Virus record (IMG/VR): IMGVR_UViG_3300033412_000047
Location: 1 to 32,715 of that record
Length of the DNA: 32,715 nucleotides
Source: a virus
Taxonomy: Duplodnaviria; Caudoviricetes
Direction: 5' to 3' (one strand)
Part shown: positions 2,940 through 32,715 of the stretch, piece by piece
Layout: each line of letters begins with the position of its first letter
How positions within the stretch are numbered: position 1 is the stretch's first letter
Notes under the pieces: model-generated
Database searches by the model: none
What the model saw: only the letters and a program-made list of their open reading frames with translations
What the model was told of the DNA's origin: nothing
Program-made: the position numbers and the translations under genes

Positions 2940-4253
2940 TTATGTTACAGGCGTAATGACCACGGAAATTTCGGCATGGGTGGCCCCATGACAAACCGAT
3001 ACCGCAACATAAATAAAATCTGGACTAAAACTGGTTGAGAAATCTCCTTCATAAAAGACACTTCCCACAGAAGGCGCGCTGTCGTAAATCACACTCAAAT
3101 TTGTCGAGACCCGTATTTTCGCAAAGCTACCCAATGGGCTTGGATTTACCCCGTAGGCAGAAACATTGCCGTTAATTACAATGTGATAACTTCGCGGGGG
3201 ATTGTCGTTGCAAACCTGTGTCGTAAGAACGGCAATTGTATATCCATTGTCCGATACGTCTGGACTCGTGTAATCAGCGGAAATCGAAGCGTTTCCACCG
3301 GCGGCACTTGACGTGATGGTTGATTTATCCAAAAAGTCACCAGAAACCGGAAACCAAACAAAACTGCTTGGTGGTAATTGGGGGCAATTGGCGTGAAAAG
3401 CGGCGATAGCTGCGGAAGCCGGCGCATCAGCATCCTCTTGAGAAATAATGCTGTGATAAGTGTGCGCGGGGACGGTCAGGTTAGAGCCATCGCAACAAGT
3501 GTAGGATTGTTCATTGTTCCAATAAACCGTTGGACAAGCTGCGGTCGCGGCGTCTATTGCTTGCTGGTTTGCGTCAGCTTGAGAAACAGCAGAGAAGTAT
3601 GTTCTGGCCGCTATGGTTGAATCAGGCGCGAATTCACACGGAACAGTTTGCTGTTCGTTCACCCATCCGCATTGAAGATTTCCATTAGCGACATTGACGG
3701 CAATCAGTTGCCGTAAAAAATTCAGAGCATTATTGTTGGCATCCAGTTGTGAAATGGTGGACGAAAAAATGCCTTCGGTGACAGTGAATTGAAAATTTTC
3801 AAACACAATTCCAAACGGGATATTAGGGCTTCCAATAATGTTGACTGCCGGAAAATTAAGACAGGCCGCAGTAACGGATTGATTTAAAAAAATCGGTTGA
3901 GGCAGCGGATTTATCGGACTGCCGCTGGCGGCATCGCATTGGGCTTGTTGTGCGGCTGCCTGTTGCAACATTCCCTGAACCAACGCTTGAATCTGTTCAA
4001 AAGTTGAACCCACAGGAATTGGAACGGTTATCATGCTCTGACAACCTTGAAATGAGAGCGGTGATTGCGGTGGCGAATTAGGAGATAATGGATATGAAAA
4101 AGTATCAGCCGGAACGGTATAGGGAATCCCATTGATTATGGTCGTATATTCCACGCTCCTTACAACTACGCGATTCAGGCTGTATGCCAAAAGATAATCT
4201 TGAACGGCGTTATTCGGAACGTCGCAACTCATGTTGTCACAATTCTCGCTCAT
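2940..4253 (-). CDS. Virion-module protein with three DUF5977-like repeats
   Basis: Repeats FTVTEGIFSSTISQLDANNNA, STIAARTYFSAVSQADANQQA, LTVPAHTYHSIISQEDADAPA. ATG at 4253 forms an ATGA overlap with the upstream stop. Confidence 0.6.
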   Translation of the reverse strand: MSENCDNMSCDVPNNAVQDYLLAYSLNRVVVRSVEYTTIINGIPYTVPADTFSYPLSPNSPPQSPLSFQGCQSMITVPIPVGSTFEQIQALVQGMLQQAAAQQAQCDAASGSPINPLPQPIFLNQSVTAACLNFPAVNIIGSPNIPFGIVFENFQFTVTEGIFSSTISQLDANNNALNFLRQLIAVNVANGNLQCGWVNEQQTVPCEFAPDSTIAARTYFSAVSQADANQQAIDAATAACPTVYWNNEQSYTCCDGSNLTVPAHTYHSIISQEDADAPASAAIAAFHANCPQLPPSSFVWFPVSGDFLDKSTITSSAAGGNASISADYTSPDVSDNGYTIAVLTTQVCNDNPPRSYHIVINGNVSAYGVNPSPLGSFAKIRVSTNLSVIYDSAPSVGSVFYEGDFSTSFSPDFIYVAVSVCHGATHAEISVVITPVT

Positions 4254-10581: not shown

Positions 10582-10860
10582 ATGAAATTCAGAAAAAAAC
10601 CAGTAATAATCGAAGCCATCACGTTCGACGAACTTGTGGAGCATGGCCGGAACAACGGCGCTAACATTGTCAACGGAATGCCGTGGTCGTTCGACTACGC
10701 AGGACATCCAATCACACATGAGAACGACGACTGCTACCTGATTCCAACGTTAGAAGGAACGATGAAAATGAATCGCGGCGATATGCTAATCACTGGCGTA
10801 AAAGGAGAAATCTATCCGTGCAAAAAAGACATTTTTGACATAACTTACGAAGCCTCTTAA
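10582..10860 (+). CDS. Conserved small phage protein of the KKPV/TLEG/YPCK family (PGDYG-like, function unknown)
   Basis: MKFRKKPVIIEA...IPTLEGTM...GDMLITGVKGEIYPCKKDIFDITYE matches a widespread phage family recognised by motif. Confidence 0.8.
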   Translation: MKFRKKPVIIEAITFDELVEHGRNNGANIVNGMPWSFDYAGHPITHENDDCYLIPTLEGTMKMNRGDMLITGVKGEIYPCKKDIFDITYEAS

Positions 10861-18677: not shown

Positions 18678-20090
18678 ATGGACTCCGTTTCCGACCAATC
18701 CGCAGCCGCCGATTTAAGGGCGACTCGCCGCCAGCGTTCATCCGGCGCGAGGAACGGTTTGGACCGCTTGCCGCCACATTCGCCGGAGGCCGAGCAAGGC
18801 GTGCTGGGTTGCGCGTTGCTTTCGCCGAACGAATGCATCGGCGAGTGCATCGAGAAATTAAAAGATGGCGGGCAGGAAGTTTTTTACGATTTGCGGCATC
18901 AGACGATTTACGAAACGCTCGCGGAGATGTTCAATTCGCGCGAGCCGGTGGACATCATCACCGTCCAGCAGAAGCTCAAGAACAAGCAATTGCTCGATCA
19001 GATTGGCGGCATCGCGTATCTGTCGCAATTACAGGACGCCGTGCCGAGCGCGGCGAATCTTTCCTATTACCTCGACATCGTCCGCGAAAAATATTTGCTG
19101 CGGAAAATGATTTCGGTCTGCACGGACGTCGTCGGACGCGTTTACGATTACGAAGGTGAAGTGGACGCGCTGTGCGATGAAGTCGAGCGCGACATTTTAG
19201 CGATTGGAAAATCTCGCGTGAGCAACACCGAAACGGGCGTAAAAGAACTTGTCCACGAATCCATCAATCGCATTGAAAAACTGTGGCAACGCAAGGGCGC
19301 GATTTCAGGCATCTCGACGGGAATCCACGACCTCGACAAGAAAACGGACGGCCTGCACGGTGGAGATTTGATTGTGGTAGCTGCTTACCCTTCGGTTGGA
19401 AAGACGAGCCTGTTAATGAATATCGTGGAGAACGTCGTTTTGGATCAAAAACTTCCGGTCGGAATTTTCACCTACGAGATGTCCGGCGTATCGCTTGTGA
19501 CCCGATTTATTTGCTCCCATGCGCGAATCAATCTCCGAAATATCCGTGATGGGATTATTTGTGAAACCGATTTTCCGAAGATAACTCATTCCGCTGGCAG
19601 GATTTCAAATGCACCGATTTATTTTGAACACAACGGCGATTTGAATTTGATGCAACTCCGGGCAAAGGCTCGCCGCTGGAAACAACAATACGGAATCAAA
19701 CTCATTGGCGTTGATTACATCCAAAAAGTGAAGCCGAGCGGATCGAACAAGGGCGATAATCGGGAGCGCGAAGTATCAGCAATATCGGACGGCCTGAAAT
19801 CTTTGGCGATGGAACTTGATTTGCCGGTGATTGCTTTAAGCCAGTTGAATGACGACGGCAAGTTGCGCGAGAGCCGGACAATCGGGCAGGATGCCGATGG
19901 CGTCTGGATGCTCGAACGCGATGACGAAAAAAGCACCGAAGAAGCCGACTTTGTTGACCTGTGGTTACGGAAGCAAAGGAATGAGGAACGCGATGTTTGC
20001 GTGAACCTGACTTTTTTGAAGAAAATCACAAGATTCGAGCAGCGCGAAAACCGAATTATCGCCGACGAAGATGTTCCCAACCACGCATGA
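18678..20090 (+). CDS. dnaB: Replicative DNA helicase (DnaB family)
   Basis: PPHS.EAEQ.VLG N-domain, Walker A AAYPSVGKTS, YEMS, VDYIQ, LSQLN, LRES..IGQDAD, KQRN. Confidence 0.96.
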   Translation: MDSVSDQSAAADLRATRRQRSSGARNGLDRLPPHSPEAEQGVLGCALLSPNECIGECIEKLKDGGQEVFYDLRHQTIYETLAEMFNSREPVDIITVQQKLKNKQLLDQIGGIAYLSQLQDAVPSAANLSYYLDIVREKYLLRKMISVCTDVVGRVYDYEGEVDALCDEVERDILAIGKSRVSNTETGVKELVHESINRIEKLWQRKGAISGISTGIHDLDKKTDGLHGGDLIVVAAYPSVGKTSLLMNIVENVVLDQKLPVGIFTYEMSGVSLVTRFICSHARINLRNIRDGIICETDFPKITHSAGRISNAPIYFEHNGDLNLMQLRAKARRWKQQYGIKLIGVDYIQKVKPSGSNKGDNREREVSAISDGLKSLAMELDLPVIALSQLNDDGKLRESRTIGQDADGVWMLERDDEKSTEEADFVDLWLRKQRNEERDVCVNLTFLKKITRFEQRENRIIADEDVPNHA

Positions 20091-21848: not shown

Positions 21849-22007
21849 ATGAACGCTGAACCACAATCAAAATCAGTCAAGCCCGCTCAAAGGACGCGAA
21901 TTTTCGGAGGTTCGATTTTTCGAGAGGGTGACACCGAGACGATTCGCGGGATTTCATTTGTTGTGACACATTTTACGAAACGCGGAGTGATTTTGAGGCC
22001 GGTTAAA
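21849..22007 (+). CDS. 5' part of a small phage gene split by the cassette array (3' part at 23817-23840); now fused in frame to cassette A ORF
   Basis: Joining 22007 to 23817 gives ...VILRPVK-QQPEERR* with TGA 23838-23840 overlapping ATG 23837. Confidence 0.7.
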
Positions 22008-22110
22008 CGACGGAACTCATGCACCGGCGACCAAAAACCTATGAACACACCAGACTTTACCGAACAACCCAAAGCGCCAACGGCGGTTGCGTGCAGTGAT
22101 TTTGTTCGGC
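22002..22110 (-). repeat. attC-like site A
   Basis: Minus strand: R'' GCCGAAC, 6 nt, L'' ACTGCACG ... L' CATGAGT, 6 nt, R' GTTTAAC. Confidence 0.75.
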
Positions 22111-22379
22111 GTCCCCTGTGTGACCGAATCAGGGCTGCTTGGAAACCGCGAATCGGATACCACGAACTGATGAACGCTGTGTTCCCATACGCAGAATACC
22201 CGCTGGCATGGCGATACTCACACAACGGAGGCCCGCCAGTGTGCGCTATGGCATTTGGGAAGGCGCTCCGAAAGCTGGGGCTGATGCGATACGACAACAT
22301 AATCTCAGGCACGCCGAATGACGAGCTATGCAACGTGGCGTCAAAAACAAACCAACAACCGAAAGACCAAAAACCATGA
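22041..22379 (+). CDS. Cassette A hypothetical protein
   Basis: ATG inside the attC A loop after an A/C-rich leader; stop overlaps ATG 22376. Confidence 0.7.
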   Translation: MNTPDFTEQPKAPTAVACSDFVRRPLCDRIRAAWKPRIGYHELMNAVFPYAEYPLAWRYSHNGGPPVCAMAFGKALRKLGLMRYDNIISGTPNDELCNVASKTNQQPKDQKP

Positions 22380-22442
22380 GTAAATCAACAGCATCCGAAA
22401 CGAAAGGGGCAAGCCACGTTGCGCATCAGCGACTGGTTAGAG
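22313..22442 (-). repeat. attC-like site B (R' core reads ATT instead of GTT)
   Basis: Minus strand: CTCTAAC cagtc GCTGATGC gcAACGTGGC ... GCCACGTT GCATAGC tcgtc ATTCGGC. Confidence 0.8.
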
Positions 22443-22726
22443 CAAAAAACGACAATAGTCTAATCACGCCAAAGGAACGTGCCGACCGGATAATTCAGGA
22501 CATCCTCGTGAACCATCTGCCGCGAATCGTAGAAGGGCTACACGCTGGATATGTGGATGAGAATCAAATCCTCGTGATGTATGACCATGCCGTGCGCGCT
22601 CGGCTGCTAACCGAACATAAAAGCTCCGAATATGTCGAGGCCATCCAAGCACAAATCGCCAGAATAATCGCTGGCGGCTCAAAAAATGGAAAACTCATCC
22701 GCGAGCAACTGCGCCACTTGCTCTAA
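22376..22726 (+). CDS. Cassette B hypothetical protein
   Basis: MSKSTASETK...; ATG inside the attC B loop; TAA stop lies within CTCTAAC of site C. Confidence 0.7.
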   Translation: MSKSTASETKGASHVAHQRLVRAKNDNSLITPKERADRIIQDILVNHLPRIVEGLHAGYVDENQILVMYDHAVRARLLTEHKSSEYVEAIQAQIARIIAGGSKNGKLIREQLRHLL

Positions 22727-22829
22727 CGACAAGCCGAGCTAACCGCCGCGAACTATCCACGAGCATGAAATCGAAACGCACTACCAAACTGAAAGCGCCC
22801 CGGCGGTTAGCTCCGGCGCATGGTTCTGA
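22721..22829 (-). repeat. attC-like site C
   Basis: Minus strand: TCAGAAC catgc GCCGGAGC TAACCGCCG ... CGGCGGTTA GCTCGGC ttgtc GTTAGAG. Confidence 0.88.
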
Positions 22830-23130
22830 TGCGGTCGTCCTTCGACTACTCGACGACAACCGGCGCATGACGCGGGAACTGCTCGCATACCGGAAGGCGA
22901 AGCGAATCAATGCCGCCCGCCTGCTGCTCTGCAAACTTCGGGCACATATCGAGCCGCACTACAAAGCCGAGCATGGTATCCCGCTCAAATACGATACAGG
23001 CTGGGCGTGGGAGATGGCTGCTTTCATCGAAAACCACTTCCAGAAAATCACCGTGAAACAGATGCGCGAGCATCAGAACGGCACAGCTATGCGGCAACTG
23101 AACGAGAAGGGCAAATATGAACTGCACTAA
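22765..23130 (+). CDS. Cassette C hypothetical protein
   Basis: ATG inside the attC C loop; reads on into the loop of site D. Confidence 0.7.
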   Translation: MKSKRTTKLKAPRRLAPAHGSDAVVLRLLDDNRRMTRELLAYRKAKRINAARLLLCKLRAHIEPHYKAEHGIPLKYDTGWAWEMAAFIENHFQKITVKQMREHQNGTAMRQLNEKGKYELH

Positions 23131-23245
23131 ATGCGGATTACCAATAACACCGGAACACGAAGAGCACGGCAACACGGGCTATCACATAATTTGCCCTTCT
23201 CGTGAAGGGTCGCGCAGCGATGTCCGCATCAGCGACGGGTTAGGC
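23073..23245 (-). repeat. attC-like site D (long, 173 nt)
   Basis: Minus strand: GCCTAAC ccgtc GCTGATGC GGACA ... TGCC GCATAGC tgtgcc GTTCTGA. Confidence 0.8.
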
Positions 23246-23551
23246 GGGAGCGCGAGCGACCGACAACCCGGCGCTGTAGCTGTGCCGTTAGGCGTGAGGA
23301 AAAGCGATCCTGCCGCCGAAGGTGAATTGCAGAGGCGTGTGGAATGGGCTGAACCAGTCTTTGAAGCATTTGTGGCAGAGGTAGCGGCAAAGAAATGGAG
23401 CAATGCTCTAAACCACATCGAGCCACTAATCCGCGAACTCAAACTCTGTGAGCATGATTGCCGCTACCTCGTCGAAGAACGGCGGCGGCTGGCGCTGGCC
23501 AGTGCAACGGCCAGCGAGCGGCTCACGCCTAACGAGAAAGTCCAGCGATGA
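23117..23551 (+). CDS. Cassette D hypothetical protein
   Basis: ATG inside the attC D loop; N-terminal CxxC..H..C; ATGA overlap with 23548. Confidence 0.7.
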   Translation: MNCTKCGLPITPEHEEHGNTGYHIICPSREGSRSDVRISDGLGGSASDRQPGAVAVPLGVRKSDPAAEGELQRRVEWAEPVFEAFVAEVAAKKWSNALNHIEPLIRELKLCEHDCRYLVEERRRLALASATASERLTPNEKVQR

Positions 23552-23657
23552 GCGACTGCAACCACACAACTCTCGAAAGCTGTCTGCGCGCCGATGAGTG
23601 CGCCCAGTGTCTCCGCGAAAGAGCGCCAAGCTCATTCGCTGCGACGGCGGGTTCTCT
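23527..23657 (-). repeat. attC-like site E
   Basis: Minus strand: AGAGAAC ccgcc GTCGCAGC GAATGAGC ... GCTCATC GCTGGAC tttctc GTTAGGC. Confidence 0.85.
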
Positions 23658-23850
23658 GGCGTCAATTCCTCACAAGTGCCCCAAATGCGACGGGCAGGGA
23701 ATCGTCAGCAAGCCGCCGTGGGTGGCAGGGGATGTCCACCAATGGAGCAGCACTGAAACAACATTCCAGTGTGATGTCTGCCACGGCTCAAAAATCATCT
23801 GGAGCAAGCCAGAGAACAACAACCAGAGGAGCGGCGATGAATTGGGATAG
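23548..23850 (+). CDS. Cassette E protein with DnaJ-type zinc finger motifs
   Basis: CPKCDGQG ... CDVCHGS; ATG inside attC E. Confidence 0.7.
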   Translation: MSDCNHTTLESCLRADECAQCLRERAPSSFAATAGSLASIPHKCPKCDGQGIVSKPPWVAGDVHQWSSTETTFQCDVCHGSKIIWSKPENNNQRSGDELG

Positions 23851-24037
23851 ATTCTCCGAAGAACGCGACGACATCGGCTACCTCGACCGACGAGCAGAAC
23901 GCGCACAAGAATTAGCCGACGTTCGCCAATAGCAGGCGCGAGACGATAAAGTTTTGTTCGGCAAAAATCATCGGATGGAAAGTCATGCCGCTGATTTGAA
24001 AGCGGCTCAAGAATTGGATGAACGAAATAAGAAATGA
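23837..24037 (+). pseudogene. Small gene with an internal TAG
   Basis: MNWDRFSEERDDIGYLDRRAERAQELADVRQ*QARDDKVLFG...ELDERNKK*; TAG at 23930-23932; the read-through frame ends in an ATGA overlap at 24034-24037. Confidence 0.55.
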
Positions 24038-24223
24038 AAATTTACTCCGGCATATTGGGTTGGCGTAGTGAGTGCGCCTGTGGGCGGCAGGCCGGAGTCT
24101 TACCGCAGTTGCCGCTCACACCTTCTGAGGCGAAGTCGGGACAGTTCGCTATTCATCTCACACTGTTCAAGTCCCTCACGTTCAATCCACCTGTTGTTGT
24201 GCGTGAGGGGCGATTTTGATTTT

Positions 24224-24928
24224 ATGCGGGAACTGATTTACAGCAACGATTTGATAGGCCAACGTCCGGTTGGAATAACGGATGGCCTTATCCGGCTTGT
24301 TGAAGATTCAACTGGCCGATGCGACGAAATTATCAAGGCGCATCATTACAGCCATAAGACAACCAAAAACAGATTTCTTTCGATGCTGGTGAATGAGGGA
24401 CTTGGAGCTATCCAGCTTGGTTACGGTATTAGGCCGAAAATGAAGCACACAATTTCGGAAGATATTTGTGAAGGAAATTTTTGTGAGTTTGACCGGATGT
24501 GGTTGAGCGATGAATTACCAAAATTCAGCGAAAGCCGGACGATTGGTTTGCTGTTGAGCTATATCAAGCGCGTTCATTCACGGATAAAATTCATCATCAC
24601 TTACGCCGACGAAAGCGCGGGAAACAAGGGAACGATTTACAAGGCGACAAACGCGATTCAGCTTAAATCTTTGGATTGCGATTTTTATGTCTTGCCTTCG
24701 GGCGAAAGAATCCATCCTGTTTCCATGTATCATCGGCATAAGACTCGTTCAAAAGCGTTCGTTCAAAAGCAGTATCCGGGCATCAAGCATATCAAGGGCG
24801 AGTTCAAACAATTCCGATTCCTGTATATTTTGGACAATAAATTGCGGAGGAAGTTTCAAGGCAGAAACGCTGGCGTTCCACGTCAGAGGGATGAGTTCAA
24901 TTCTCATACTCCGCCCCAATTAACATGA
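24224..24928 (+). CDS. mom: Mom-family adenine modification enzyme (GNAT fold)
   Basis: HHYS; QLGYG; EFDRMWLSDELPKFSES..I; IKFIITYADES.G..GTIYKATN; KQFRFLY. Start likelier at ATG 24224 than 24068. Confidence 0.85.
   Translation: MRELIYSNDLIGQRPVGITDGLIRLVEDSTGRCDEIIKAHHYSHKTTKNRFLSMLVNEGLGAIQLGYGIRPKMKHTISEDICEGNFCEFDRMWLSDELPKFSESRTIGLLLSYIKRVHSRIKFIITYADESAGNKGTIYKATNAIQLKSLDCDFYVLPSGERIHPVSMYHRHKTRSKAFVQKQYPGIKHIKGEFKQFRFLYILDNKLRRKFQGRNAGVPRQRDEFNSHTPPQLT
24844..24918 (+). tRNA. Atypical tRNA-Gly(UCC)-like RNA overlapping the mom 3' end
   Basis: GCGGAGG AA GTTT CAAGGCAG AAAC G CTGGC GTTCCAC GTCAG AGGG ATGAG TTCAATT CTCAT ACTCCGC C CCA: full cloverleaf, TCC anticodon, encoded CCA. Confidence 0.85.
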
Positions 24929-28244: not shown

Positions 28245-29183
28245 ATGAAAGAACAACCCGACAACGACGAAATCAACCTGACCAAGCTGGCGCAGGACTA
28301 TTCAGACAACGACAAGGCGCGTGAGTTGCTCGAATCAATACGCTGGCCGAAAGGCATCATTTGCCCTCATTGCAATTGTTCGGGTCATTACGTATTAAAG
28401 CCAAGAGCCACAAGCAAAGTTCCGGCGCGTAAAGGGCTATACAAATGTAAAACGTGCTGGCGTCAATTCACTGTCACTGTCGGGACAGTCATGGAAGATA
28501 GCAAAATCCCGCTTGGCAAATGGCTCATGGCGTTCTTTATTCTTGGTTCAAGCAAAAAGGCCATTTCATCCCATCAACTTCACAGAATGTTAGGTGTGAC
28601 GTATAAAACGGCTTGGTTCATGTCCCATCGCATCAGACACGCGATGAAACCGCACCAAAGGCTCTTACAAGGCGTCGTAGAAGTGGATGAGACGTTCTTT
28701 GGCAAGAAGTCGGACGTTCGCACGTCTAAAAGCTCTAAATCATGCGTAGCCGCTCTTGTGGAACGCGGTGGAGAAGTCAGGACAAGAGTCGTTGCCAGTG
28801 TCACCCAAAAGAATATGGGCGCGTGTATTCGTGAGCTTGTGTCAAAGGACGCTATCATCAACACCGATAACCATTCAGCGTATGCCAATCTTGCCGATTA
28901 CAAAGGCCATGACGTTGTGAGCCATTCAACCGAAGGCTTCAACAAAATCACACTCGAAGGCCGCAGGGCATCCGTCAATTACTGCGAATCGTTCTTTTCC
29001 CTGATGAAACGCGGAATAGTCGGAGCATTTCATCATGTTTCCAAAGAGCATCTGCCTAGATATTGCGATGAGTTCGCGTTCAGGTGGAACACAAGGAAAC
29101 ATACGGACGGCGAACGATTTGAAGTGGCTATCGCCGCGATTGAAGGCAAGCGGCTCAAATATAACGACGCGATAGCGCGTTAA
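28245..29183 (+). mobile_element. IS1595-family (ISXO2-like) DDE transposase
   Basis: RWP.G..CPHC..YKCKTC..QFTVTVGT Zn ribbon; HTH with YKTAWFM.HRIR; VEVDETF, TD...Y, N..ESFFSLMKRG..G.FHHVS.EHL.RY..EF.FRWN. Confidence 0.95.
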
Positions 29184-32129: not shown

Positions 32130-32715
32130 ATGTGCCAATTCAAATCTGGAATCGTATTGAAATCTGCTAAAGAAAAAGGCGGCTTTCGCTTAATCATGTC
32201 GCCGTGGACAGAATCACACAGCGAACTAATCACCATGTTCAAACTCAATGACGGCAAGATGCTCCATTTTGCTCGCGTTGAATTTTCACCGCCGAATTTA
32301 GACACGGCATGGCAACCGGACACCTACAAGTTGAAAATTGACGAGGACAGGACGCCGGAATGGTTCGACGCTGAAATGAAAGAGAATGTTGCCGACAAGA
32401 TGCGGGATTATATCAAATCCATCATCGTTTCCGGCGATGTTCAGCTTTTGATTGGAGGACAATTTGTAATCGCTCCCAATGCTAAAATTGAATGCGCTCA
32501 CACAATGGTCATAAATGCTATGTGTGGCGGCACGGTCAATTACATCAGGGGCGGCACGGTCAATGACATCAGGGGCGGCACGGTCAATTACATCAGGGGC
32601 GGCACGGTCAATGACATCAGGGGCGGCACGGTCAATGACATCAGGGGCGGCACGGTCAATTACATCAGGGGCGGCACGGTCAATGACATCAGGGGCGGCA
32701 CGGTCAATTACATCA
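32130..32715 (+). CDS. Phage protein with octapeptide (beta-helix-like) repeats; runs off the right window edge
   Basis: MCQFKSGIVLK..SHSEL..ARVEFSPP..DEDRTPEWF then (GGTVN[Y/D]IR)n; not in the ORF track. Confidence 0.8.
   Translation, partial: MCQFKSGIVLKSAKEKGGFRLIMSPWTESHSELITMFKLNDGKMLHFARVEFSPPNLDTAWQPDTYKLKIDEDRTPEWFDAEMKENVADKMRDYIKSIIVSGDVQLLIGGQFVIAPNAKIECAHTMVINAMCGGTVNYIRGGTVNDIRGGTVNYIRGGTVNDIRGGTVNDIRGGTVNYIRGGTVNDIRGGTVNYI
32526..32715 (+). repeat. 24-bp coding tandem repeat, 7 full copies plus 1 partial
   Basis: GGCGGCACGGTCAAT(T/G)ACATCAGG; unit order Y,D,Y,D,D,Y,D,Y. Confidence 0.97.

Follow-up and report, generated by a model that had tools for sequence, protein, structure and literature searches.

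Integron-type cassettes with genes that start inside their own attC hairpins in a phage-type genome without an integrase match

Introduction

How can a virus that encodes no integrase carry a row of integron cassettes, and how would the genes in such a row be expressed? The question is raised by an array of five cassettes in the IMG/VR virus record IMGVR_UViG_3300033412_000047, a phage-type genome from soil, of which the whole analysed stretch (32,715 nucleotides, 32.7 kb) is here called the window. The initial annotation, made from the sequence without database searches, had proposed that the cassettes are bounded by attC sites on the minus strand, that they are moved by an integron integrase (IntI) supplied in trans, and that attC arrays are rarely described in phages. 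The last point was overstated. According to the accessible text of Qi et al. 2023 (PMC9892861), 17 attC clusters without an integrase (CALINs) were found in 10,705 phage genomes, and IntI1 recombined five of the six phage attC sites tested; mobilisation of CALINs in trans was proposed in the part available to us of Cury et al. 2016 (PMC4889954). Phage CALINs, the activity of IntI1 on phage attC sites and the trans proposal are therefore already in print. What had been overlooked in this locus is the orientation of the genes, which run antisense to the attC top strand and begin within the hairpins. We consider it probable that the array consists of five integron-type cassettes in a genome without an integrase, with bottom-strand genes each starting in its own hairpin, and that the IntI which moves it comes from elsewhere, either from a Verrucomicrobiota host or from a related phage.

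Results

All five sites lie on the minus strand where they had been annotated (Table 1), and each has the anatomy of attC: R'' ending in AAC, spacers of 5-6 nt, pairing between L'' and L', an extra base in L'' and R' beginning with GTT (ATT in site B). L'' is 8 nt long in every site and carries an unpaired G at position 4 as read on the minus strand. On the attC bottom strand the unpaired base is usually G (PMC5027507, text available in part), whereas it is C in all five sites; as C is also found there in 22 of 49 sites from the putative host group and in 77 of 107 viral sites, the departure from the usual G is a trait of the group. The R boxes match across cassettes rather than within sites, as the initial annotation held: the five cross-matches are 8/9, 10/10, 10/10, 12/13 and 10/10, compared with only 3-4 of 7 positions between the R'' and R' 7-mers of one site. 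Beyond the shared GTT the cassette ends match at 33 of 35 positions, the best of 120 pairings, while 200,000 random draws from real attC flanks gave a mean of 14.8 and a maximum of 27. The six crossovers reproduce the cassette lengths given earlier. A strict anatomy scan found four sites in the 2-kb region, whereas 300 shuffles averaged 0.007 and never gave more than one; with 6-nt spacers allowed it found all five, together with four isolated matches of lower grade elsewhere in the window. No Rfam family was matched at the five sites.

Judged from DnaB alone, the host is likely to belong to the Verrucomicrobiota, since the N-terminus of this helicase is 71-95% identical to its best 80 genome matches, which are mostly from that phylum (subdivision 3/Limisphaerales) with some labelled otherwise. 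Of 301 genomes from the likely host order (the order of genome G005), 106 encode an integron integrase that scored over the cut-off. We took 43 stretches beside host integrases, 11 of which gave 49 attC candidates, at least one of them probably false. These host-group sites share anatomy and spacer lengths with the phage sites and have G (22), C (18) or T (9) at L'' position 4, and their cross-matches are mostly 7-11 of 12. A covariance model built solely from 38 host-group chromosomal attC sites (our own model, not IntegronFinder or HattCI) matched four of the five phage sites at their exact coordinates (scores in Table 1) and gave no other match below an E value of 0.99 in 56.7 kb spanning the whole record. 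Taken with the anatomy and the chance tests, this bears out the assignment to integron-type cassettes. As a separate observation, in 25 of 49 host attC sites (arrays L136, L130, L134 and L232) the loop has an ATG on the bottom strand from which the frame stays open as far as the site's end.

The complete record of the virus (G001) is 55,519 bp long with direct terminal repeats, and its compared stretches are 100% identical to the window. No match to PF00589, TIGR02249 or PF00239, and hence to a tyrosine recombinase or resolvase, was found in these 55.5 kb, so that the absence of an integrase noted in the window extends to the complete record. The locus thus has five attC sites within 1.7 kb and no intI, as in a CALIN, and neither an intI gene nor an attI stands at the head of the array, as a complete integron would have.

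All five genes are encoded on the plus strand, which is the bottom strand of attC. Their start codons lie in the loops of their respective hairpins, and the reading frames then run across the L''-R'' arm. Four of the genes cross the next crossover with AAC or AAT read as asparagine, and the remaining one (gene 2) stops on the crossover TAA. In this AAC frame the first arm of the successive sites ends -4, -4, +22, -14 and -4 nt from the ATG of the cassette. A fixed frame at the GTT of R'' was also considered and was rejected, as it differs among the five genes; the AAC frame alone is fixed. In a typical cassette the gene lies on the top strand and ends at or before attC, which is not what is found here, where the genes lie on the bottom strand and start inside attC. 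The cassette proteins had no Pfam or PHROG family above the cut-off. Homologues were found for gene 1 (12), gene 2 (64 other proteins, which share a conserved domain at about residues 31-84) and gene 5 (27), and many of them begin at their own methionine, without the leader encoded by the arm; such arm-less homologues of genes 1 and 5 occur in viral records. The locus is a real CALIN in an inverted arrangement, with starts in the hairpins.

Table 1. Features of the cassette array, its surroundings and related viral loci (window coordinates; a slash marks the crossover)
Feature	Position	Strand	Remarks
Crossovers (AA/C or AA/T)	22008, 22319, 22727, 23079, 23533, 23817	+	
attC site A	22002..22110	-	spacers 6/6; unpaired G at L'' position 4; start codon of gene 1 inside; 41 bits
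attC site B	22313..22442	-	R' begins ATT; gene 1 stop/gene 2 start overlap (ATGA) in loop; 19.6 bits
attC site C	22721..22829	-	gene 3 start inside; fold z -3.0; 30.2 bits
attC site D	23073..23245	-	173 nt, long loop; gene 3 stop/gene 4 start overlap 14 nt
attC site E	23527..23657	-	gene 4 stop/gene 5 start overlap (ATGA); 24.4 bits
Possible decayed sixth attC	23811..23900	-	L'-R' half strong (L' box 23826-23832, offset by one extra AAC triplet)
Cassette 1	22008..22318		311 bp
Cassette 2	22319..22726		408 bp
Cassette 3	22727..23078		352 bp
Cassette 4	23079..23532		454 bp
Cassette 5	23533..23816		284 bp
Upstream small open reading frame	21849..22007	+	cut or fused at left crossover
Gene 1	22041..22379	+	112 aa; also in frame with upstream reading frame from 21849
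Gene 2	22376..22726	+	116 aa; stop is TAA of next R' box
Gene 3	22765..23130	+	121 aa; called a gene from layout and frame
Gene 4	23117..23551	+	144 aa; called a gene from layout and frame
Gene 5	23548..23850	+	100 aa; two CxxC motifs, zinc-ribbon-like, Pfam match below cut-off
Small open reading frame	23837-23932	+	31 aa; start within possible sixth site
DnaB helicase	18678..20090	+	used for inferring host group
Array surroundings		+	run with DnaB and Holliday-junction-resolvase-like gene upstream (Erf and exonuclease VIII in same run), Mom-like gene downstream
IntI-bearing viral loci	L212-L218		records G312, G316, G317, G321, G322, G324, G328

The same layout was found in other viral arrays. 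A degenerate pattern modelled on phage-type arms retrieved 41 viral loci, some of them on the same or near-identical contigs and four looking like chance, and after removal of duplicates and with a neighbour cross-match of at least 7/10 we kept 80 cassettes at 26 loci. In 58 of these 80 the body is spanned throughout by a frame on the bottom strand. In the 45 cassettes with a single such frame, the crossover is read as AAC for asparagine in 39 and the frame stops at the crossover TAA in six, and no other frame occurs. An ATG within the cassette's own attC is present in 33 of the 45; in every one of these it lies between -11 and +8 nt from the stop of the AAC frame, and 20 have it as ATGA, while with a control frame 12 of the 33 ATGs lie within 20 nt of a stop. 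In host cassettes the AAC frame is open in one of 26. When pairs of neighbours were not filtered by cross-match, 56 of 73 agreed at 4/4 positions across cassettes, compared with 11 of 73 within sites. Coupling of stop and start on the bottom strand is seen in 72 of 107 viral sites versus 10 of 49 host sites, and these ten may reflect exchange of sites with phages. No pair of near-identical attC sites common to host and viral cassettes was present in the sample, and none of the window cassette bodies matched the host array loci examined.

Relatives of cassettes 1 and 5 carry the traces of movement. In eight of the 11 homologues aligned with gene 1, conservation ends at the crossover asparagine and a different tail follows, and the five closest homologues of gene 5 likewise switch their tails past it. 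The body of cassette 1 is 98.6% identical over 212 nt to locus L026 and 86% identical to L022, with different neighbours in each; in L022 it is followed by another attC at AA/C, and there both its ends are unlike those in the window yet complementary to each other at 11 of 11 positions. The body of cassette 5 is 86% identical to a cassette-like gene in L010. The expectation that gene content changes at the AAC junctions holds for these relatives, but changes were also found at the GTT of R''. The similarity of L026 to cassette 1 runs from the R'' box onward, and the hairpin before it is different and partly decayed; conversely, hairpin A has a counterpart with 90% identity across 94 nt in an attC site of the IntI-encoding phage G321, where it fronts an unrelated gene body. 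From these alignments, R'' appears to be a second boundary, at which hairpins are exchanged between gene bodies. IntI is reported to recombine top strands at low frequency (PMC5027507, in the text available), and this might explain the hairpin swap. In L026 we also noted signs of decay in the hairpin before the cassette 1 copy (563-668), which keeps the frame with a spacer 3 nt shorter, and at the far end (about 870-880), which has a 5-nt duplication. A distant homologue of gene 1 (L032:5001-5279) is also flanked by antisense attC-like sites, of a shorter type.

Integrases were searched for in 33 viral records, namely those of 31 of the 41 loci together with L010 and L022. Seven contained an IntI-like gene, four of them over the cut-off. 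The gene follows the final crossover and points the same way as the cassette genes, mostly behind an AAC-N4-ATT motif, which we read as attI. The six full-length proteins have a segment of 102-105 residues between two conserved motifs, the length found in host IntI. Five of the six form a group (FastTree support 0.97) together with nine short integrases encoded in host-group assemblies, and the remaining one nests among chromosomal integrases. A host row (L145) in the tree is out of frame and distorts the root.

At the right end of the array, an L'-R' half-site at 23811-23900 has the highest minus-strand score under the host matrix and the second highest under the viral one, while its partner arm is weak (rank 83 of 32,695) and it has neither an R'' nor a stable fold. 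On this pattern we lean slightly towards reading it as a decayed sixth site. At the left end, no homologue was found for the small upstream reading frame. When the five cassettes are deleted in silico, a frame of 60 codons runs from 21849 and its stop overlaps the next ATG at 23837; closure of the frame in this manner is roughly a 1-in-3 coincidence.

Searches for near relatives with an altered array, using the resolvase-like gene, gene 4 and a 19-nt arm pattern, retrieved the identical record only; two further matches to the arm pattern looked like chance and were dismissed. Among 50,697 GenBank phage records there was no DNA match. A promoter scan gave 11 sites where 8.0 +/- 3.1 were expected, which is no informative excess. 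Directly after the array (24068-24928, plus strand) lies a Mom-family DNA modification gene, over the 3' end of which (24844-24915, plus strand) Rfam gave a tRNA match of 36.9 bits and ARAGORN no tRNA. Further on, the window holds a transposase of the IS1595 family (28245-29183, plus strand) and, at its end, a tandem repeat of 24 bp in about eight copies (32526-32715), which spans the ends of G001. Two paralogous small genes of PHROG 419 occur in one genome (window 10582-10860 and L006:11380-11679). A cluster of sugar-modifying genes was seen in L007 (180-3762 and 5320-11175), with a glycoside hydrolase 130-like protein, an aminotransferase, glycosyltransferases and a hexapeptide acyltransferase, and L007 also encodes a protein of 1951 residues with a weak DarB-like match.

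Discussion

It seems that the array combines the hardware of integron cassettes with an expression logic that is reversed. According to the mechanism we propose, an IntI from the host or from a co-infecting phage would cut the folded bottom strand at AA/C, and circles would be excised and inserted as in bacterial integrons, with phage replication exposing the single strands. The hairpin would then act as a translation joint, in which the first arm ends the upstream gene in the frame that reads AAC as asparagine and the loop provides the next start. In this way the plus-strand operon of the phage could express any order of cassettes by stop-start coupling and without a Pc promoter. Since the hairpin holds both a start codon and the stop of the upstream gene, cassettes could be rearranged with every protein left intact and no promoter set aside for them. 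From time to time, recombination at the R'' box would transfer hairpins between gene bodies. Because related phages encode IntI-like proteins, a co-infecting phage and a lost intI of the phage's own are live alternatives to the host as the source of the integrase.

Several known systems resemble the window in part. The phage CALINs described in the accessible text of Qi et al. (PMC9892861) likewise have several attC sites in a phage without intI. In their model case TJE1, however, attC lies on the same strand as the genes, whereas here the genes are antisense and start inside the hairpin. In another of their phages, MW202573, our own scan placed attC antisense to the annotated genes, and the starts that we inspected lie after the site, unlike those in the window; the antisense sites there (L235:2069-2132 and 3670-3738) have the AAC frame open into them. 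The text of that paper, which we had without the figures, contains no remark on this orientation. The CALIN as set out in the available part of Cury et al. (PMC4889954) also has at least two attC sites with no intI nearby. It was defined from bacterial genomes, with cassette genes typically opposite to intI, in contrast to the IntI-bearing viral relatives, in which the cassette genes run towards and with intI. The chromosomal integrons of Verrucomicrobiota from the host order are like the window in site anatomy and spacer lengths, and unlike it in having an adjacent intI and genes mostly on the top strand. Short open reading frames that lie in attI1 and attC and help the following cassette to be translated (PMC8876359, seen in part) are similar to the proposed termination and reinitiation inside a recombination site, but as described there they are separate and on the top strand, while in the window it is the gene of the cassette itself that starts within the hairpin, on the bottom strand. 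We found no description in the literature of the inverted layout, with the start in attC and a fixed AAC frame, in phages; most subscription papers and the figures and annotation file of Qi et al. were outside the search.

A number of results weigh against the reading that we prefer. Site B has ATT at R', and the host-trained model misses site D with its 173 nt. In the context of the array, the predicted folds of sites A, B and E do not surpass shuffled sequences in stability (plus-strand z -1.25, 0.02 and +1.17); of the four sites tested (A, B, C and E), C is the only one that does. When modelled as circular forms with their own R boxes, all five reach the recombinogenic hairpin (bottom-strand p 0.04-0.54, with 0.54 for site D, compared with a host median of 0.41, n = 26, and a viral median of 0.42, n = 80); this modelled folding gave no consistent advantage to the bottom strand. 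No homologues of genes 3 and 4 were found in the searches made. In 43 of the 80 viral cassettes the body can be read in an open top-strand frame as well, so that openness itself is weak evidence and the case rests on the frame bias and the homologues; in addition, the seed pattern was derived from phage-type arms and may have enriched the inverted layout. No excision or circle joints were present in four contig sets, a source from which rare variants are dropped, and as the compared stretches of G001 and L025 are 100% identical to the window, they offer no near relative showing gain or loss. Of the sequencing runs that contain this DNA, none was listed as RNA, and three DNA runs may themselves be its source and are not independent. 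The attI-like motif of the IntI-bearing phages is absent after 23817, where the attC-like half-site is found instead. Finally, no terminase, portal or capsid family was recognised among the scanned open reading frames of the record, and its status as a phage therefore rests on the virus class of the record and on its replication and recombination genes.

Some of these points would fit the remains of a phage integron that once ended on the right with an intI and attI of its own and lost them, leaving a row that is frozen or decaying. In the seven viral loci with an intI-like gene it directly follows the last crossover, mostly behind the attI-like motif that is lacking here, site A shares 90% identity with an attC from an IntI-bearing phage, and both the possible decayed sixth site and the ATT of site B could be taken as decay. 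No remnant of an integrase was found in a search down to an E value of 10, however, and the near-perfect cross-matches, together with a 98.6% identical copy of cassette 1 among other neighbours, indicate recent movement. We regard such a loss as a serious possibility, though not as the likelier course of events, and it is compatible with mobilisation in trans. Somewhat more doubtful is an origin by seeding at a secondary site of the attG type in the 3' end of a small phage gene, followed by growth through attC x attC recombination. The restored 60-codon frame, with its stop overlapping the ATG at 23837, would suit this, as would the known insertion of cassettes by IntI at GWT sites (10.1101/2022.09.11.507474, in the part accessible to us), but the fit of the frame is about a 1-in-3 event, the small reading frame has no homologue that we could find, and the sequence beyond 23817 scores like one half of an attC site, which suggests that the array was once longer.

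The attC anatomy shared with host-group arrays would also follow from a single illegitimate capture of a block of chromosomal host cassettes, with the hairpins as passengers, and off-target capture was raised by Qi et al. (PMC9892861, accessible text). We find this improbable, as the AAC-frame rule is missing in the host cassettes, no cassette body of the window matches the host array loci examined, and homologues of genes 1 and 5 without the arm occur in viral records. That the hairpins are signals for transcription or translation, or chance inverted repeats, with no part in recombination is in our view very improbable: the weak folding of A, B and E in the array and the start and stop codons in the loops are in line with it, but matching between rather than within sites, covarying ends and changes of neighbours at AA/C would not be expected.

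A wider interpretation, which we put forward only tentatively and think rather unlikely as a whole, is that phages of the Verrucomicrobiota group run an inverted integron system with an IntI clade of their own, in which the hairpins serve as plug-in modules for translation start, grafted on phage genes via the R'' box. The mechanism of cassette creation was called unknown by Cury et al. 2016 (PMC4889954, available part). Here members of one gene family may carry a hairpin or lack it, and unrelated genes can be preceded by near-identical hairpins, which provides concrete sites for studying how cassettes are created. If the wider interpretation is true, phage genomes would be a birthplace of new integron cassettes, and the finding would bear on the origin of cassettes.

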